A stretch of 44,446 nucleotides of DNA, taken from sequence record OR594181; one strand, 5' to 3'. Positions 1,898 to 39,625 of the stretch are shown piece after piece. Position 1 is the first letter of the stretch. Every line of letters starts with the position of its first letter. A model generated the notes under the pieces. That model did not search any database and was not told the origin of the DNA. It saw nothing but the letters and a program-made list of their open reading frames with translations. Made by a program: the position numbers and the translations under genes. Source of the DNA: Escherichia phage vB_EcoM_SHAK7704.

Positions 1898-1915
1898 ATT
1901 TACTGGACACTATAG
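1898..1915 (+). promoter_or_regulatory. Phage RNAP promoter ATTTACTGGACACTATAG
   Basis: 18-mer matching the consensus repeated across the window; immediately after the terminase stop. Confidence 0.7.
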
Positions 1916-1991
1916 GAGGAAGACCAAGAGAATAAAGGAATATTATAGGATAATATAGGATTACCTATGTTATATAGGTACACCTTATTAT

Positions 1992-2020
1992 GAGGGTACT
2001 CCTGTACCCTCTTCTTATCT
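1992..2020 (+). terminator. Promoter-proximal hairpin GAGGGTAC-tcct-GTACCCTC followed by T-rich run
   Basis: Perfect 8-bp stem, then ttcttatct; about 80 nt downstream of the promoter +1 and upstream of the 2054 ORF. Confidence 0.4.
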
Positions 2021-2053
2021 ACTTCATTATTTACTAGAAACAAGGAGTATAGA

Positions 2054-2335
2054 ATGGCTAATAATTATAGTGATCAACCACTAACAGGTCGATATGATCG
2101 AAAGCAGGAGACACCTGTAAGTGAAGCGTTAATGCTCCCTGTTGTTACAGAGGAGTCTATTAAGAAGAAAGCCAATGTTATCAATGATGCAACCAAATCT
2201 GGTAAACAGAAAGCATCAATGGTGTGTCGTCCTGTAGGTGGCACTCTTGAGATTGCCATTGCTACTGGCAGCAGAGAGGATGCAGATTGGTTGTCTGTTA
2301 AAATGGATGGCGTTGGTCTTATTACACCGGCTTAA
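2054..2335 (+). CDS. Hypothetical protein, paralog A of a three-gene family
   Basis: 93 aa; AAGGAG RBS; shares an INxxxxSGKQ...IAxGS..D.W domain with the next two ORFs. Confidence 0.6.
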   Translation: MANNYSDQPLTGRYDRKQETPVSEALMLPVVTEESIKKKANVINDATKSGKQKASMVCRPVGGTLEIAIATGSREDADWLSVKMDGVGLITPA

Positions 2336-2351
2336 TAAAGGAGAAGATAAT

Positions 2352-2636
2352 ATGTCTAAGTATGGCGATGCAGGTACTACTGGTCAGGCTTTTCGTGTAA
2401 AAGCAGTACAAACTATTGCAACTGCAATCCCTATGCCTATCGTGGCAGAAGCTGACCTTAAAAAGAAAGATCATCCAATTAATATTGAACACCTATCTGG
2501 TAAGCAGAAAGGTGCTATGGTGGTTGTAGATAAAGGAGATAATAGCCTTTATATTGCTATTGCACGTGGTTCTGCACCAACTGACCAGTGGGATGTAACT
2601 ACTATGGAAGCTGTACCTGTAACACCAGGAGCTTAA
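2352..2636 (+). CDS. Hypothetical protein, paralog B
   Basis: 94 aa from ATG 2352 with AAGGAG RBS; same conserved domain as paralogs A and C. Confidence 0.6.
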   Translation: MSKYGDAGTTGQAFRVKAVQTIATAIPMPIVAEADLKKKDHPINIEHLSGKQKGAMVVVDKGDNSLYIAIARGSAPTDQWDVTTMEAVPVTPGA

Positions 2637-2637
2637 T

Positions 2638-3327
2638 ATGCTGGGAGTAACAGGACAACGCAATAAGAATGTAGCCACCAAAGTGGTGGCTGATTTAGCT
2701 ACTGCTGCTACTGTCGAGGAATTACGAAACCAACATAGCTCTATTAACCGTGCTGACCTTTCTGGTAAACAAGAAGGTTCCGCCGTTATTATTAAGAAAG
2801 AAGATGGGAATTATTCTATCTTTGTAGCAACAGGAAGCAAGCCGACTGATGTGTGGAAAGAGTTGTCTCCAACAATACCAGAGCAAGAGATGCCTGCTGA
2901 ATATATTGATATGATTGATGTTCAAATTCATCAAGATTCTGCAAGCAACTTACATATAGACTCTTCTCGCACTAGTTTAATACAAACACCAATGTGGGAT
3001 ACTGAAGGTGAGTTGTTATTCCGTAATACACTAAGTGCAACATGTTCTTGTACTATTCTTGTTGATGGTGCGTCTGGTGTTCGTCAGGATTTTACTTTTA
3101 AGATTAATGGACTTTTAGAGCAGGAAGAGCAGTATTATGATATTGACACACTTATGTGCTCTATTCACTCTGCAACAACAACTAATGGCCTTACCTTGTG
3201 TATGCCAGATGCTAAAAGTGCAAAGACTAATAAAGTGGTAGTTAAGATCGACACTATGCAGTCATTAGCTATGAGCTTTGATCTTAACTTCCTTGTAGAA
3301 TGGACGTCACCAACGAGGTTACTATAA
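2638..3327 (+). CDS. Hypothetical protein, paralog C (family domain plus ~140-aa C-terminal extension)
   Basis: 229 aa; N-terminal domain homologous to A and B; stop overlaps the endolysin start (TAATG). Confidence 0.6.
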   Translation: MLGVTGQRNKNVATKVVADLATAATVEELRNQHSSINRADLSGKQEGSAVIIKKEDGNYSIFVATGSKPTDVWKELSPTIPEQEMPAEYIDMIDVQIHQDSASNLHIDSSRTSLIQTPMWDTEGELLFRNTLSATCSCTILVDGASGVRQDFTFKINGLLEQEEQYYDIDTLMCSIHSATTTNGLTLCMPDAKSAKTNKVVVKIDTMQSLAMSFDLNFLVEWTSPTRLL

Positions 3328-3671
3328 TGCTAAATCAATACTTCAAGCGTAAAGAATTTGCTTGCCGTTGTGGGTGCGGTACATCCACTGTTGATGCTGA
3401 GTTACTACAGGTAGTAACAGATGTGCGTGAGCACTTTGGTACTCCTGTTGTTATCACTTCTGGTCATCGCTGCGCCAAGCACAATGCTAATGTAGGTGGA
3501 GCTAAGAACTCTATGCATCTTACTGGTAAGGCTGCTGACATTAAGGTACGAGGCATCTTACCTTCTGATGTACATAAGTACCTTACTGATAAGTACCAAG
3601 GCAAGTATGGTATTGGTAAATATACCTCCTTTACTCATATTGATGTACGTGACGGGTGTGCACGATGGTAG
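3327..3671 (+). CDS. Endolysin, zinc peptidase M15-like fold
   Basis: 114 aa from ATG 3327 (ORF track starts at 3300 but has no RBS); SGHRC...H...D...H motif; sits beside the spanins. Confidence 0.7.
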   Translation: MLNQYFKRKEFACRCGCGTSTVDAELLQVVTDVREHFGTPVVITSGHRCAKHNANVGGAKNSMHLTGKAADIKVRGILPSDVHKYLTDKYQGKYGIGKYTSFTHIDVRDGCARW

Positions 3672-3779
3672 GTTGTGTTGCATGGTGTGAACGCATGGTT
3701 GCTAAGGCTTCAGAGGAAGGCAACTATGAAGATTGGCAGAACTACTCAACTTTATTAGCTCAATGGAAAGGGAGATGCA

Positions 3780-3929
3780 ATGAAAAAGCTGTTCAAATCT
3801 AAGAAGGTTGTAGGTGCACTAGTTGCATTGGCAATTGCTCTTGTTTCTGTAGGTCTTGGTGTAGACCTTGGCTCTGGCACGGAATCCTCTGTGACAGATG
3901 TGGTCTGCCAAGTGATCACCTGTGAATAA
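3780..3929 (+). CDS. Small hydrophobic peptide (49 aa), possible lysis regulator
   Basis: Not in the ORF track (under 60 aa); AAGGGAG RBS 9 nt upstream; MKKLFKSKKVVGALVALAIALVSVGLGV hydrophobic segment. Confidence 0.4.
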   Translation: MKKLFKSKKVVGALVALAIALVSVGLGVDLGSGTESSVTDVVCQVITCE

Positions 3930-4143
3930 GTTTCTAGAAGTGCTGGCAGGTCTTATTGGCCTGCTTGTCTCTGCTAAGAAGAAACAAGAAGAGAAGGAGG
4001 CACAAAGTGAAGCGAATCATGCTAGCGACAACCCTGCTGATTGGTTCGCTGATCATTTCAGGGTGTCAGACGGCGTTACCAGAGAATCCAAAGGTGAAGC
4101 CTCTGAAGCCGACGCTTACGGCAGTCTACGAGGTGGACGATAA
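3922..4143 (+). CDS. i-spanin (Rz-like), candidate
   Basis: 73 aa, GTG start; N-terminal transmembrane segment FLEVLAGLIGLLVSA then charged domain; overlaps the o-spanin ORF. Confidence 0.45.
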   Translation: MNKFLEVLAGLIGLLVSAKKKQEEKEAQSEANHASDNPADWFADHFRVSDGVTRESKGEASEADAYGSLRGGR

Positions 4144-4216
4144 AGTCTGCTTCAGTAAGCCTGACGCTACAAAATTAGGTCTGTACATTCTCTCGCTAGA
4201 ACGCGGGTATAATTAA
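4007..4216 (+). CDS. o-spanin (Rz1-like outer-membrane lipoprotein)
   Basis: GTG 4007 with GGAGG 6 nt upstream (alternative ATG 4019); signal peptide with lipobox IISGC; proline-rich mature part; +1 frame over the i-spanin. Confidence 0.6.
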   Translation: MKRIMLATTLLIGSLIISGCQTALPENPKVKPLKPTLTAVYEVDDKVCFSKPDATKLGLYILSLERGYN

Positions 4217-4245: not shown

Positions 4246-4263
4246 ATTTACTGGACACTATAG
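4246..4263 (+). promoter_or_regulatory. Phage RNAP promoter ATTTACTGGACACTATAG
   Basis: Exact consensus 18-mer upstream of the tailspike genes. Confidence 0.7.
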
Positions 4264-7397: not shown

Positions 7398-7531
7398 GGA
7401 GAACGCCTAGGAAGCGCTAGGGCACGCCTTAGTATTGGACAAGGTGATTGCCTTAGTGCAACCGCTTAGGGCTTACACAGGCCGTTTTAGGGCCATTCCT
7501 GAGCGTTTGACAAGGTGGGCGTGGGTGGGCT
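7398..7531 (+). repeat. Direct repeat copy 1 (134 bp), putative right terminal repeat
   Basis: Identical base-for-base to 7532-7665 in direct tandem. Confidence 0.7.
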
Positions 7532-7665
7532 GGAGAACGCCTAGGAAGCGCTAGGGCACGCCTTAGTATTGGACAAGGTGATTGCCTTAGTGCAACCGCT
7601 TAGGGCTTACACAGGCCGTTTTAGGGCCATTCCTGAGCGTTTGACAAGGTGGGCGTGGGTGGGCT
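7532..7665 (+). repeat. Direct repeat copy 2 (134 bp), putative left terminal repeat
   Basis: Identical to 7398-7531; followed at 7666 by ATCTGTT. Confidence 0.7.
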
Positions 7666-7716
7666 ATCTGTTCGTTTCGTTCACTCCGCTTGCGCTCCGT
7701 TCACTCGCTCACGTGT

Positions 7717-7845
7717 ACCTTAGGTTATTCCTTGATGGATGGCTTAGGTTAGCCTTAGTGGGCTGCCTTAGTTAAAGCCTTAGTGCTTAGCTTAGTATCA
7801 ACTTAGTAGTGTACCTTAGTAAGTCTTAGTGTCTTCTCTTAGTGA
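7717..7845 (+). repeat. Array of about 10 short CTTAGT-type repeats next to the terminal repeat
   Basis: ccttagg, gcttagg, ccttagt, gcttagt, acttagt, tcttagt recur every 8-15 bp. Confidence 0.6.
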
Positions 7846-8027
7846 TTGCATAGCTAAAGCTATAAGATGCAATTAGGTCGCGGTCGGTAGACCGCTAAGA
7901 GTAGGTAATAGTAATAAGATGCAGTAGGAGGAACACCAGAAACCTAGCCAACCTAGCCTATCCTAGCTCTGTATCTATTGCTTTCCTTAGTCTCACATGT
8001 TAGACAACCTATGTTTATCTTAGTAGT

Positions 8028-14351: not shown

Positions 14352-14367
14352 GTCTCACATGTGAGAC
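14352..14367 (+). repeat. 16-bp perfect palindrome GTCTCACATGTGAGAC (copy a)
   Basis: Directly upstream of the promoter at 14370. Confidence 0.8.
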
Positions 14368-14369
14368 TT

Positions 14370-14387
14370 ATTTACCGGACACTATAG
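14370..14387 (+). promoter_or_regulatory. Phage RNAP promoter ATTTACCGGACACTATAG
   Basis: Consensus with one substitution (C at position 7). Confidence 0.65.
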
Positions 14388-14543
14388 GATAGCCGTCGGA
14401 GACGGGAAAGAAAGGGAAGATAAAGGATATAAAGGAAGTAATAGGTATTAAAGGTTATATAGGTTATCTAGGAATACCTAGGAATACCTATTACCTTCTT
14501 CCTTCCTCTTATTACCACTTAGAGGAAGGGCAGACCTAGGTTG
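14388..14543 (+). other. Origin-like repeat region between two phage promoters
   Basis: AT-rich; AAAGGA iterons; tandem ctaggaataccta/ggaataccta; inverted repeat GGAAGTAATAGGTATT...AATACCTATTACCTTCC. Confidence 0.45.
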
Positions 14544-14559
14544 TCTCACATGTGAGACT
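14544..14559 (+). repeat. 16-bp palindrome GTCTCACATGTGAGAC (copy b)
   Basis: Directly upstream of the promoter at 14564. Confidence 0.8.
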
Positions 14560-14563
14560 TCGT

Positions 14564-14581
14564 ATTTACCGGACAGTATAG
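14564..14581 (+). promoter_or_regulatory. Phage RNAP promoter variant ATTTACCGGACAGTATAG
   Basis: Two substitutions from consensus; precedes the 14612 ORF. Confidence 0.5.
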
Positions 14582-21318: not shown

Positions 21319-21336
21319 ATTTACTGGACACTATAG
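21319..21336 (+). promoter_or_regulatory. Phage RNAP promoter ATTTACTGGACACTATAG
   Basis: Exact consensus. Confidence 0.7.
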
Positions 21337-21406
21337 AAGGAAAGCCTAGGTAATCTAGGTTTATAAGGTAGTATAGGTAATTAAGTAAATATAGGAGATA
21401 TAAAAT

Positions 21407-22104: not shown

Positions 22105-22166
22105 GAACAATAGGTCGGCTTAGTTCGGCCTATGATTGTGTAGTGTAACAATAGGAGACTAAATAA

Positions 22167-26407: not shown

Positions 26408-26419
26408 TTGACACTATAG
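26402..26419 (+). promoter_or_regulatory. Variant phage promoter ATTTAGTTGACACTATAG (SP6-like)
   Basis: One mismatch from the SP6 consensus; overlaps the phosphoesterase TAG stop. Confidence 0.55.
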
Positions 26420-26475
26420 AACAAAGGGTAGGTATTAGCTTACCCTTGATTGTATAGTGAATGGAGGAATTAATT

Positions 26476-32769: not shown

Positions 32770-32805
32770 GCCCTATCTACCTTGCGTAGGTAGGGTTCTT
32801 TTGTT
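32770..32805 (+). terminator. Intrinsic terminator after the capsid gene
   Basis: CCCTATCTACC-ttgcg-TAGGTAGGG stem then TTCTTTTGTT; homologous to the terminator at 23747. Confidence 0.7.
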
Positions 32806-36677: not shown

Positions 36678-39625
36678 TGGCAATTGAGCGACAAGCAGTA
36701 CAAGGTCTGCCACAAGTGCAGGCCACTTCTCCTAATGTCATGACCTTTGCACCTCAACAAGTGGGAGGTGTGGAGGCTGGCGTGGCTTCTACCTCCGGTA
36801 GTAGATTTATCGAAGACCTTATTCGTGCAGCAAGCAGCGTGGCTGATGTTACCACTGGTATCCTTAATCAGAAGATTGAGGAAGATAAGGTTGTTCAGAT
36901 GGAACGGGCATATAACGGATTAATGCCTTCTGAGGATGCAACTCGTGGTGGCGCTCGTGCTAACATGCTTGTCAAAGCTCAACTGCTAGCTAATGATGAA
37001 GCAGCACGAATGAAAGACATGGCTACTCGTTTCCAAGGGACGGATGACGAGTGGACACAACTTATGGTTGACTCTCGTAATGAGATGCAGAATAAGCTGT
37101 TCCAGCAATACCCTGAGTTGCAAGGTGACAAAGATACTATGCGTATGGTCACTAATGTCTTCCAAGAACAGCAGCCTCAGATTTGGGCTACACGGACCCA
37201 GCATAAACTTGACCGTGAACAAGCAGACCGTGAGGATACCTTTGACGGGCGAGTGGCTTCTACTTGGGATTCTAATATTGACCCTGAAGCTTCTGGCTAT
37301 GCTTTACAGGAACGAATCCGCGAAGGTCTTACTCAAGGATTACTACCTGAACAGATGCACAAGAAGTTAGTCCAGCGAGCAATTTCACTTGCACAAGGCG
37401 GTGATGTTAGCATGGCTGAAGCCCTGAAGTATGTGAAGGACGATAATGGTGTTTCTGTTTATGCTAAGAATCCACAGCTTATCACAGCCATCACTAGTGG
37501 TAATGCAGTTTGGGCTAGGAATAATGTAGCTGATGTAACTCGTATGTCTTTCGAAGTTAAAGAATCATACCTTGCAGGTGATTTAACTGATGAAGAATTG
37601 TTGGAACGAGCACAGCACATTAATAATCTGACAGGTAACTATGTCTTCTCTAATCCAGAACTAGAGGCACTGATGCGCCAAAGGGCTAAGCAGAATGCAG
37701 AGCTAGGTGCAATGCAGGATATGCGACGTGAGCTTTACTCCGACCGCCTGACTGGCTTCCAAGGTAAGACTGATAAAGAGAAGAAGGCTTACATTGATGT
37801 TATCAAACAGGATAGCCAACTTTATGCAGACCAGCAAATCAAACAACGTGGCTTGGATCCTTACAGTCAAGAGGCTGAAGCTATTCGTGGTGCAGTGGAA
37901 GTGCAGCGTCTGCAATTCATGAACTCCAAAGGCTTAGTGGATGACACCTTTGAGTCTCGTATCAAAGCCATGGAATCTATGCTATCGCCTGAGCACTTTG
38001 CCAAGGGCGAACCACAGGAGTTGATGACTATTCGCCAGTTGTGGGAACAGTTGCCAGAAGAGAGCCGAGGTGTCTTTGGTGACACGGTTAATGGCTACAT
38101 GGATAACTACAACACTGCACTACAAATGGGAGAGACACCTTTGCAGGCTGCAAGGTTTGCGCGTGAAGCACAGCAGAAATTCTCTCGTACTGAGAAGGAA
38201 ACCAAGAAGTTCAACTCAGCTATTGGAGATGCGCTGGATGAGGTATCTGGTGCTGGCTGGTTTGATGGTAAAACCGAAGTGTCAGACTTAGGTAAAGCTA
38301 TTGCGGAAGAAGAGTTACGAGCTAAGGCCAATATGTTGTGGTCTAGCGGTATGCGTAACATGGATTCTATCAAGAAGGCTTTAATTACTTGGGGCAATAA
38401 ACGCTACACTCAATCAGAGGATGCAAAGACTTCCGGTGGCTATTTCATTAAAGGTGATTACACTTCTGCATCTGATATGCTTATGTCAGTTGGGAAAGGC
38501 GTAAACCCTACCGATGTACCTCTGGCGCTTGGTAGGTATGTAGAAACACAGATGCCAGAATTGAAGAAGGAGCTTCAAGAGTGGGAAACTAAAGATGATA
38601 TATACATTGATTACAATGAACAGAAAGGAACTTTTGTGATTCGTGCTGGTGCAGCAGGTCGCCCTCTTTCTGGAGTAATCCCTGTAACCTCTTTAGATAC
38701 TACTTCACTACTAGATTCTGCCTATCAGAAGAAAGTAGAGGAACGAGATAAAGGCGAGTATGTTCACCCGTATCGTACAGATATTGGTGCACAAGAGCCT
38801 ATGCCAGCTAAACCAACTGCCAAAGATATTGGTAAATTTGGACTAGCTAACTTCCTCATGTCTTCTGCTTTTGCTTCTGGTGAGAATCTACCTTCTAACT
38901 TCGAGATTAACTATCGAGGTAATATGCAACAATTCTATGACAAGCTAGCTATGGATGAGAATAAAGATAAAGTTGGCTTTAATAAGGCAACTGGAACCTT
39001 TACTCCATATAAAGACGCTCACGGTGAGTCTATCGGTTACGGTCATTTCTTAACGGAAGAAGAGAAGCGAAACGGGTATATTAAGATTGGCGATGAACTA
39101 GTTCCCTATCGAGGGTCTATGTCTCAGCTTACAGAGAGTAAGGCTCGCGCTCTTATGGAGCAAGATGCTAAGAAGCATGTGCCTCCTACTCGTGACTGGA
39201 AGATTCCGTTTGACCAGATGCATCCTGCACAGCAACGTGGCTTGATGGATTTAACCTACAATTTAGGTAAAGGTGGAATCCAGAACTCACCGCGTGCTCT
39301 TGCTGCATTCAAAGCTGGTAAGCTTACGGAAGGCTTTATCGAAATGCTGGGCACTGCATCAAGTGAAGGTAAGCGTATTCCTGGCCTACTGAAGCGACGC
39401 GCTGAGGCATACAATATGGCATCTGCTGGTGGTGTGCCTAAGATTACCGAAGTGGAGACTCGTGAAGATAGCTCCATGTGGGTTAGGTTTGGTGGACCTA
39501 TGCCAGCAGGTTCTGTCTCGGCATGGACTCATAAACGTATTGGCGCGGATGGTTGGTATCAGGTTTATGAGGCTGCACCTACCAAGTTAGCTAAAGGTTC
39601 TAAGGTAGGTAAAGTTAAGTTGTAG
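36677..39625 (+). CDS. Internal virion protein with C-terminal lysozyme-like domain
   Basis: 982 aa; C-terminal region has GESIGYGH in a T4-lysozyme-like context. Confidence 0.7.
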   Translation: MAIERQAVQGLPQVQATSPNVMTFAPQQVGGVEAGVASTSGSRFIEDLIRAASSVADVTTGILNQKIEEDKVVQMERAYNGLMPSEDATRGGARANMLVKAQLLANDEAARMKDMATRFQGTDDEWTQLMVDSRNEMQNKLFQQYPELQGDKDTMRMVTNVFQEQQPQIWATRTQHKLDREQADREDTFDGRVASTWDSNIDPEASGYALQERIREGLTQGLLPEQMHKKLVQRAISLAQGGDVSMAEALKYVKDDNGVSVYAKNPQLITAITSGNAVWARNNVADVTRMSFEVKESYLAGDLTDEELLERAQHINNLTGNYVFSNPELEALMRQRAKQNAELGAMQDMRRELYSDRLTGFQGKTDKEKKAYIDVIKQDSQLYADQQIKQRGLDPYSQEAEAIRGAVEVQRLQFMNSKGLVDDTFESRIKAMESMLSPEHFAKGEPQELMTIRQLWEQLPEESRGVFGDTVNGYMDNYNTALQMGETPLQAARFAREAQQKFSRTEKETKKFNSAIGDALDEVSGAGWFDGKTEVSDLGKAIAEEELRAKANMLWSSGMRNMDSIKKALITWGNKRYTQSEDAKTSGGYFIKGDYTSASDMLMSVGKGVNPTDVPLALGRYVETQMPELKKELQEWETKDDIYIDYNEQKGTFVIRAGAAGRPLSGVIPVTSLDTTSLLDSAYQKKVEERDKGEYVHPYRTDIGAQEPMPAKPTAKDIGKFGLANFLMSSAFASGENLPSNFEINYRGNMQQFYDKLAMDENKDKVGFNKATGTFTPYKDAHGESIGYGHFLTEEEKRNGYIKIGDELVPYRGSMSQLTESKARALMEQDAKKHVPPTRDWKIPFDQMHPAQQRGLMDLTYNLGKGGIQNSPRALAAFKAGKLTEGFIEMLGTASSEGKRIPGLLKRRAEAYNMASAGGVPKITEVETREDSSMWVRFGGPMPAGSVSAWTHKRIGADGWYQVYEAAPTKLAKGSKVGKVKL

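Follow-up and report, generated by a model that had tools for sequence, protein, structure and literature searches.

A conserved promoter and hairpin after the terminase gene of Escherichia phage vB_EcoM_SHAK7704: a candidate leaky terminator

Introduction

For phage SP6, seven terminators of its RNA polymerase have been stated, and one of them, t5, located after the capsid gene, gave 86% termination of SP6 polymerase in vitro (PMC11347151). Terminators have also been predicted after terminase genes: a hairpin of Escherichia phage R4596 (MK373771) is annotated as 'putative transcriptional terminator' on the basis of an ARNold prediction, and ARNold also calls a terminator in the Vibrio phages AS51 and phiA318 ('Phage terminator-2'; PMC4099482). 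The present study concerns Escherichia phage vB_EcoM_SHAK7704 (sequence record OR594181), of which a stretch of 44,446 nucleotides (the window) was analysed. Between its terminase large-subunit gene and the next gene, a homologue of gene 41, the window carries at 1898-2053 a promoter, a series of short repeats and a strong hairpin, to which the R4596 hairpin is orthologous and the Vibrio site positionally equivalent. A preliminary description had suggested that this arrangement could produce a short RNA or act as an attenuator. Promoter and hairpin together are a conserved element of the kind previously predicted in these relatives.

Another group of described systems, the replication origins of T7, has to be considered as well. 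In T7, gene 1 is directly followed by the promoters phi1.1A and phi1.1B, and gene 19 by phiOR. The phi1.1A/B region is the primary origin and phiOR a secondary origin, and all T7 origins require a T7 promoter (PMC8373140). Plasmids were replicated from a phiOR origin only in the absence of RNase H (PMC8373140), which indicates priming from an R-loop.

Promoter and conserved hairpin

A phage-RNA-polymerase promoter of the SP6/K1E type could be assigned to 1898-1917 of the + strand (-17 to +3), with its first base 2 nt past the terminase stop codon (TAG, 1894-1896). The stretch initially described as a promoter, 1898-1915 (ATTTACTGGACACTATAG), corresponds exactly to -17 to +1 in one of twelve near-identical sites on the + strand, which share the core ACACTATAG(A/G)AG, and the predicted start site is G1915. 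The sequence ATTTACTGGACACTATAGGA fits the consensus of the 11 other sites (ATTTACTGGACACTATAGAAG); it is intergenic, has the same direction as the genes, and is kept at this place in all aligned SP6/K1E-like relatives. A 14-mer search allowing up to three mismatches gave 15 matches over both strands of the window, compared with 4.1 expected and a maximum of 9 in 100 shuffles. Judged by this consensus, the identity of the promoter is real. A scan for sigma-70 promoters, which is not relevant here, found 11 sites against 13.5 expected, and hence no enrichment. Downstream of the start site, the alignment defined a purine-rich initially transcribed segment (GGAGGAAGACCAAGAGAAT, 1915-1933, + strand), and the best 60-nt stretch is 72% purine.

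The hairpin is located at 1992-2011 on the same strand (+78 to +97, its first base 77 nt past +1), which agrees well with the perfect 8-bp hairpin that had been placed about 80 nt after the promoter. In DNA it reads GAGGGTAC-TCCT-GTACCCTC, with eight perfect pairs, five of which are G-C, and a 4-nt loop (UCCU in the RNA). Its energy of -14.5 kcal/mol corresponds to a z-score of -5.57, and none of 200 shuffles was as stable. Folding of the whole leader, on the other hand, was not above that of shuffles (z = -0.94), and the predicted structure ascribed to the leader in the preliminary description is in this respect weaker than stated. Immediately 3' lies a pyrimidine/U-rich tract (TTCTTATCTACTTCATTATTTACTAGAAA, 2012-2040, + strand), whose first 8-10 nt would be the U-tract of a terminator. 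The best 25-nt stretch of this tract is 84% pyrimidine, and a tract of 76-92% pyrimidine follows the hairpin in all SP6/K1E-like relatives.

The evolution of the element was traced in spacers between terminase and gene 41; these were taken from several GenBank phages and 26 IMG/VR contigs with 70-99% identity at the terminase C-terminus. The 25 distinct leaders share one layout, in which the promoter is followed by a purine-rich start, a repeat array, a CCTTAGT box, the hairpin, the pyrimidine tract and the Shine-Dalgarno (SD) sequence. Most relatives have the CCTTAGT box before the hairpin, where the window has CCTTATT. The stem arms vary considerably: the 5' and 3' arms are GAGGGUAC and GUACCCUC in the window, GGGUGUAC and GUACACCC in the K1E type, GGGAGGUA and UACCUCCC in SP6, and GGGUACUC and GAGUACCC in a further group of contigs (L025), and some relatives have shorter versions of the stem with a tandem G·A internal loop. 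When 12 distinct stem variants were tabulated by structure, all 82 scored positions proved to be paired, and changes on both sides were seen in six of the eight stem pairs (pairs 1, 2, 3, 4, 5 and 7). MAFFT combined with RNAalifold was limited to the inner five pairs, all of which showed compensatory changes, and this result was replaced by the structural table because sequence alignment misplaces the arms. The compensatory changes in many lineages identify the hairpin as a selected structure.

Two features of the loop were also recorded. The UCCU loop is kept in the K1E and SP6 types, and UACA is found instead in several other lineages. In the window, ACUCCU (1998-2003), comprising the last two bases of the 5' arm and the loop, is complementary to the SD region AGGAGU of gene 41 (2044-2049).

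Proposed leaky termination and its alternatives

The interpretation favored here, with about even confidence, is that the hairpin acts as a constitutive, leaky class I terminator, giving rise to a leader RNA of ~102-106 nt as well as read-through. The stable GC-rich stem, the short loop and the evolutionarily kept pairing that mark terminators of class I are all present. Because the hairpin is selected and has this anatomy and a corresponding score, an RNA of ~102-106 nt accompanied by read-through appears to be the most likely output, although both the fact of termination and its efficiency are what we infer. On a d'Aubenton-Carafa-type scale, the hairpin scored 0.7, compared with 3.7 for SP6 t5, whose homologue is found in the window at 32770-32796, and 3.0 for the T7 Tphi core. 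The respective tail scores were 2.94 and 3.68, while Tphi reached 4.39 with its full tail and 3.31 from its core stem. A scan of SP6 found seven intergenic sites with a hairpin and a pyrimidine tail, among which the capsid site was the fifth (cf. 't5') and the post-terminase site at 37863-37881 the sixth; this order fits, but does not prove, that the SP6 hairpin is already among the listed terminators.

In the proposed mechanism, the phage RNA polymerase would start at G1915 of the late promoter behind terminase, transcribe the purine-rich array with its 10-nt phase, and meet the GC-rich stem-loop and then the U/C-rich tract. A fraction of polymerases would release at the hairpin, including both those started at G1915 and those arriving through the terminase gene. 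The former would leave a repeat-containing RNA of ~102-106 nt, and the 3' ends of long late mRNAs would be protected by the hairpin. The remaining polymerases would read through into genes 41-47, which comprise three paralogs, the endolysin, the spanins, gp46 and the tailspike. Such an element would set a fixed ratio and would not sense any signal.

Several observations weigh against efficient or even any termination at this site. The T-rich tract noted after the hairpin does exist, but the tail (TTCTTATCT, or UUCUUAUCU in RNA) has only five T in its first eight bases and is interrupted, the next 29 nt being pyrimidine-rich, and such a U-tract is weak. In most relatives it is weaker still, with the tail UAUUCCUU, tail scores of 2.2-2.4 and terminator scores of -10 to -16. 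The pyrimidine tract extends for ~30 nt up to the SD sequence, far beyond what a terminator needs. The hairpin lies 3' of the promoter, and this order is conserved, as opposed to the usual order of terminator and then promoter. Moreover, the endolysin and spanin genes (3327-4216) have no further phage promoter until 4255, so that read-through is required. Since the next phage promoter is only at 4255, these genes would depend on transcripts that pass the hairpin, and termination must be partial. A literature search found no transcript-end data for any SP6-like phage. The weak U-tract, the location of the hairpin after a promoter and the essential genes downstream are the reasons why the terminator is read as leaky.

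The preliminary description had offered an attenuator as the alternative to a ~100-nt RNA. Of these two, the short RNA with read-through is the more probable in view of the terminator-like hairpin and the selection on it, and no sign of regulated attenuation was observed. A regulated attenuator or riboswitch-like leader, in which hairpin formation depends on translation of a leader peptide, on a ligand or on a protein, would share the classic order of promoter, long structured leader, terminator-like hairpin and gene, but it is very improbable here. Neither folding nor alignment of the leaders revealed a conserved antiterminator pairing or a complement to either arm up- or downstream. The ATG codons of the leader lack conservation: that at 1966 is due to a mutation found only in the window, and that at 1988 is absent in the SP6 group. 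In addition, indels of 10 and 30 nt exclude a conserved open reading frame (ORF) on either strand. A leader peptide was accordingly rejected as a candidate, the second ATG being in frame with gene 41 in only some K1E-type contigs, and a minus-strand ORF at 1900-2043 (47 aa) was discarded because of the same indels among relatives. Rfam gave no family at gathering score in the whole window, and only chance-level matches in 1850-2100 (best E-value 0.16).

A second explanation is that the hairpin is an RNA stability or processing element and not a terminator. The stem-loop might block 3' exonucleases after an endonucleolytic cut in the single-stranded pyrimidine tract, or the purine-rich 5' part of the leader might pair with this tract to form an RNase III substrate, as in T7 R1.1, the RNase III site that sits between phi1.1A and phi1.1B. 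Both routes would divide the late mRNA into one message on the terminase side and another on the lysis side. It would suit this explanation that the hairpin is conserved by compensation in spite of its poor U-tract, and that 27 of 44 distinct post-terminase spacers, compared with ~1% of random genome windows, contain a purine-rich stretch of 60 nt and then 25 nt with a pyrimidine content of at least 80%. Further support comes from a sister module after the RNA polymerase gene, which folds into a ~17-bp hairpin (z = -2.38) between two promoters, in the place of T7 phi1.1A/phi1.1B. However, pairing of the 5' purines with the 3' pyrimidines was no better than in composition-keeping shuffles (29 distinct leaders, most z-scores between -1 and +1), the whole-leader z-score given above points in the same direction, and RNase III requires a longer stem than one of 8 bp. 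The irregular duplex of ~20 bp typical of T7-type RNase III sites is absent at 1992-2011 but is found in the sister module at 14432-14500. A stability or processing role is rather unlikely.

The region might also serve translation of gene 41, with the pyrimidine tract as a landing site for ribosomal protein S1, the AGG repeats as standby sites and the hairpin as an insulator. The tract reaches the SD sequence in all aligned relatives, the repeat cores AGGA and AGGU are SD-like, and ACUCCU in the window could pair with the SD region. On the other side, the array after the RNA polymerase gene and the arrays of at least six distant lineages precede a second promoter and not a ribosome site, the loop has changed from UCCU to UACA in several lineages, and other highly expressed genes of the window lack such tracts. 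This function is considered improbable, and leaky termination remains the preferred reading of the hairpin.

The phased repeat array

The leader had been described as rich in TATAGG, and of the 13 copies on the + strand of the 44.4-kb window, four indeed fall within 1911-1978. What had been missed is that these repeats are part of a purine-rich array with a 10-nt phase, which is conserved across genera and is also present behind the RNA polymerase gene. In the window, the array occupies 1934-1991 on the + strand and consists of six units of ~10 nt (AAAGGAATAT, TATAGGATAA, TATAGGATTA, CCTATGTTA, TATAGGTACA and CCTTATTAT), with an autocorrelation of 0.45 at lag 10 (p = 0.014). HAGG motifs are located at +20, +30, +40, +50 and +59 from the start site in nearly all relatives, and in the alignment the leaders differ in length by steps of ~10 nt. 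Runs of at least four phased HAGG motifs are expected at 0.04 per shuffled genome, and in the real sequences of the window and SP6 they were found only behind phage promoters (6162-6210 and 37809-37848 in SP6). The 1934-1991 array itself falls short of such a run because of a single private G-to-T change.

This private change, from CCTAGG to CCTATG at 1964-1969, disrupts one of the repeat units, gives rise to an ATG and extends a hairpin at 1950-1973; a relative of 98.9% identity has CCTAGG. The latter hairpin (AUAAUAUAGG-AUUA-CCUAUGUUAU, + strand) is a secondary local structure inside the array, which was seen in the centroid structure and compared with that of the closest relative (L003). 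Three explanations of the repeats were tried and ruled out. A CsrA-type GGA sponge does not hold, as the motif is GGU in most relatives; the repeats are not copies of the promoter specificity region, where K1E-type promoters have TACTGG and not TAGGT; and a GTA primase site is not contained in every unit, as the units of the window read GGATA.

Only three of the twelve promoters in the window are followed by a periodic leader (p = 0.014, < 0.001 and 0.001, with p > 0.15 for the other nine). Besides the 1898 promoter, these are found in two other regions of the + strand. The module after the RNA polymerase gene (14352-14581) contains, in order, a palindrome, a promoter (+1 at 14387), eight phased HAGG units (14412-14479; autocorrelation of 0.55 at lag 9-10, p < 0.001), a pyrimidine tract (14490-14515), another palindrome and a second promoter (+1 at 14581). 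Behind the DNA polymerase gene, the third promoter (+1 at 21336) is followed by five phased HAGG units at 21337-21374 (whole region 21320-21406; p = 0.001). The palindrome of the first of these modules, GTCTCACATGTGAGAC, is perfect over 16 bp and occurs four times in the window (14352, 14543, 17129 and 39643), with a near-copy at 7990. The array behind the RNA polymerase gene has one copy on either side, in both cases a short distance upstream of a promoter, and the other two copies extend to hairpins of 10-11 bp with U-rich tails. Vibrio AS51 (GTCTCACAGTGTGAGAC) and SP6 (GTCCAACGTGTTGGAC) carry related palindromes at the same places.

The post-terminase module, consisting of a promoter, purine-rich repeats of ~10 nt, a hairpin and a pyrimidine tract, also occurs in other genera and subfamilies, including Proteus phage Premi, Pantoea phage Nifs112, an Era103-like contig, Pectobacterium phage PP99, Vibrio phage AS51 and many metagenomic contigs. 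A hairpin followed by a pyrimidine tract was found at this position in Premi, Nifs112, the Era103-like contig and two further contigs (L057 and L074). In one Era103-like contig (L054, IMG/VR 641201069), approximately seven tandem copies of a 28-nt unit (TATAGGTAGGCCCAGGTTATCCAGGTC) at ~1545-1735 precede the hairpin CCCCTCT-TCAG-AGAGGGG. The repeat motif depends on the lineage and may be AGGTA, TAGAGC, AAGAKAGTAC or AGTAAGTA. In the genomes in which both loci were examined, the post-polymerase and post-terminase arrays use one motif per genome, which is of the AGGTA type in the window and SP6 and TAGAGC in Vibrio AS51. Because the motif is lineage-specific but common to both loci within a genome, a phage-encoded partner of the repeats is suggested. 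In at least six distant lineages, a second promoter copy is located 3' of the hairpin, so that array and hairpin lie between two promoters, an arrangement that favors a short autonomous transcription unit.

Possible relation to replication origins

By positional analogy, the 1898 promoter and its leader are the counterpart of T7 phiOR, which makes a role in replication or packaging a serious rival, or an additional function, on the strength of that analogy. Here promoter, array and hairpin would act at the level of DNA or an R-loop, which is compatible with leaky termination. Transcription from the promoter would form a stable hybrid of purine RNA and pyrimidine DNA, which might prime DNA synthesis from a 3' end perhaps set by the hairpin, or the repeats might bind a phage-encoded protein. 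The leader has the layout of T7-type origins, a phage promoter and then an A+T-rich segment: its first 77 nt are purine-rich and 70% A+T, compared with 55% in the genome. The array stands behind only the three promoters mentioned above, and the loci after the RNA polymerase gene, with two tandem promoters, and after terminase correspond to phi1.1A/B and phiOR of T7. The T7 phiOR leader itself shows an 11-nt periodicity (0.40, p < 0.001). The use of a single motif per genome (AGGTA in SP6/K1E types, TAGAGC in Vibrio AS51) and the arrays between two promoter copies would also agree with such a role, and promoters of the Vibrio phage have been proposed to be equivalent to phiOR (PMC4099482). Nevertheless, no origin has been mapped in any SP6-like phage, and a positional analogy is not a test. 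The 10-nt periodicity might be a slippage by-product of a tandem array, the T7 phi1.1B leader has no periodicity of 9-11 nt, and a role of the RNA would explain the compensatory changes in the hairpin at least equally well. An origin or packaging function of this type is therefore regarded as a minor possibility.

A broader and somewhat more doubtful proposal is that promoter, array with a 10-11-nt phase and hairpin form an autonomous non-coding transcription unit, in which the R-loop of the ~100-nt transcript would prime replication or mark concatemers. Such a unit would have been kept from T7 phiOR through the SP6/K1E-like, Era103-like, Proteus, Pectobacterium and Vibrio autographiviruses, and a second copy is present behind the RNA polymerase gene. 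The 3' end of the primer would be fixed by the hairpin terminator, and a phage-encoded protein would read the lineage-specific motif. In mitochondria, the related polymerase terminates prematurely at CSB II and thereby makes replication primers. The phased array is conserved and stands behind exactly those promoters that are positioned like T7 replication origins; should it mark origins or a packaging signal, these could for the first time be located by a sequence signature in the many autographiviruses that have no mapped ones.

Genome context

By its sequence, the window is a circularly permuted genome of an SP6/K1E-like autographivirus (Vectrevirus; K1E/K1-5/SP6-like). It is 98.9% identical to Escherichia phage SHAK7163 over the queried stretch, and K1E, ACG-C91, CrRp3 and many other Vectrevirus records have 85-90% identity to it. 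The terminase large-subunit gene occupies 1-1896 of the + strand in the ORF list and is annotated as such in OR594179 (98.9% identical) and other Vectrevirus records. In K1E (L002, AM084415), this gene is split into 40A and 40B by the putative homing endonuclease gene 40.5 (1443-1976), and it is intact in the window.

Downstream of the leader, the first ORF does start at ATG 2054, as had been described, preceded by the SD sequence AGGAG at 2043-2047; the ORF list and annotated neighbours identify it as the gene 41 homologue (2043-2335 with its SD sequence, + strand). At the ribosome site of gene 41, five of the compared genomes (L002, L004, L006, L015 and L020) have a (GA)n microsatellite between SD sequence and ATG. 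Its length varies among K1E-like isolates from AGGAGAGAGAATG to AGGAGAGAGAGAGAGAGAGAATG, which shifts the SD-ATG spacing by up to ~10 nt; the window has no such microsatellite. Gene 41 is the first of three consecutive paralogs at 2054-3327, and it is followed in order by the M15 endolysin, small lysis genes including spanins, gp46 and the tailspike. The paralogs match phrog_2725/phrog_32357 and are labelled 'acetyl-CoA acetyltransferase' in the database; this label looks like an inherited misannotation, because they have no Pfam family match.

Other features of the window may be briefly mentioned. An exact direct repeat of 134 bp is present in two tandem copies (7398-7531 and 7532-7665), which is probably the terminal repeat joined on circularisation of the linear genome. 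Directly 3' of the pair is ATCTGTT (7666-7672), which matches the class II pause/termination signal of the T7 concatemer junction. Dense short repeats of CCTTAGT, GCTTAGT and CTTAGG adjoin the terminal repeat at 7715-7850, with CCTAGC repeats at 7940-7975, and these arrays resemble the CCTAAAG arrays beside the terminal repeats of T7. Finally, two leaders at 22105-22150 and 26419-26465 have a hairpin right after +1, then GATTGTRTAGTG and a ribosome site, and look like paralogous 5' untranslated regions.

Implications

As it stands, the finding changes little, adding one more leaky terminator, already predicted in relatives, to a phage of the T7 supergroup. Leaky termination at this point would help to explain why lysis and tailspike genes have fewer transcripts than head genes. 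It may also be of use for the engineering of Vectreviruses, which are applied against K1 E. coli: expression of the lysis cassette would be expected to change with an insertion or deletion at the leader.

Comparison with described systems

For T7 phi1.1A/R1.1/phi1.1B, the closest parallel is not the 1898 leader but the sister module at 14352-14581. In both of these, two tandem promoters stand just behind the RNA polymerase gene and enclose a structured segment of purines and then pyrimidines; the 1898 leader has one promoter only and no long duplex. The likeness of the 1898 leader to T7 phiOR is one of arrangement. In both, the first intergenic region past the terminase large-subunit gene contains a phage promoter, followed by an A+T-rich leader of ~140-160 nt with a periodicity of 10-11 nt and by a hairpin shortly before the SD sequence of a small gene; in T7 this hairpin precedes the ribosome site of gene 19.5. 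They differ in that no sequence similarity can be detected, and in that the T7 hairpin is AT-rich, has a 14-nt loop and lacks a pyrimidine tract. The T7 genome ends within 0.7 kb, whereas 5.7 kb of lysis and tailspike genes follow in the window, and origin activity has been demonstrated for T7 only (PMC8373140).

The predicted terminators of Vibrio phiA318/AS51 ('Phage terminator-2') and of R4596 share with the window both the position after terminase and its promoter and the layout of promoter, ~10-nt repeats, GC hairpin and CT-rich tract. These terminators are predictions only, and in the Vibrio phages the stem and the repeat motif (TAGAGC) are unrelated in sequence to those of the window. 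Compared with T7 Tphi and SP6 t5, the window hairpin has a shorter stem (8 bp versus 10-15 bp) and a U-tract broken by C and A, and it is located 77 nt past a promoter and not at the end of a gene block. What it has in common with them is a stable GC-rich stem with a short loop and, although interrupted in the window, a U-rich tail directly 3', a similar hairpin energy per length and tail score, and essential genes downstream, for which a terminator would be leaky by design.

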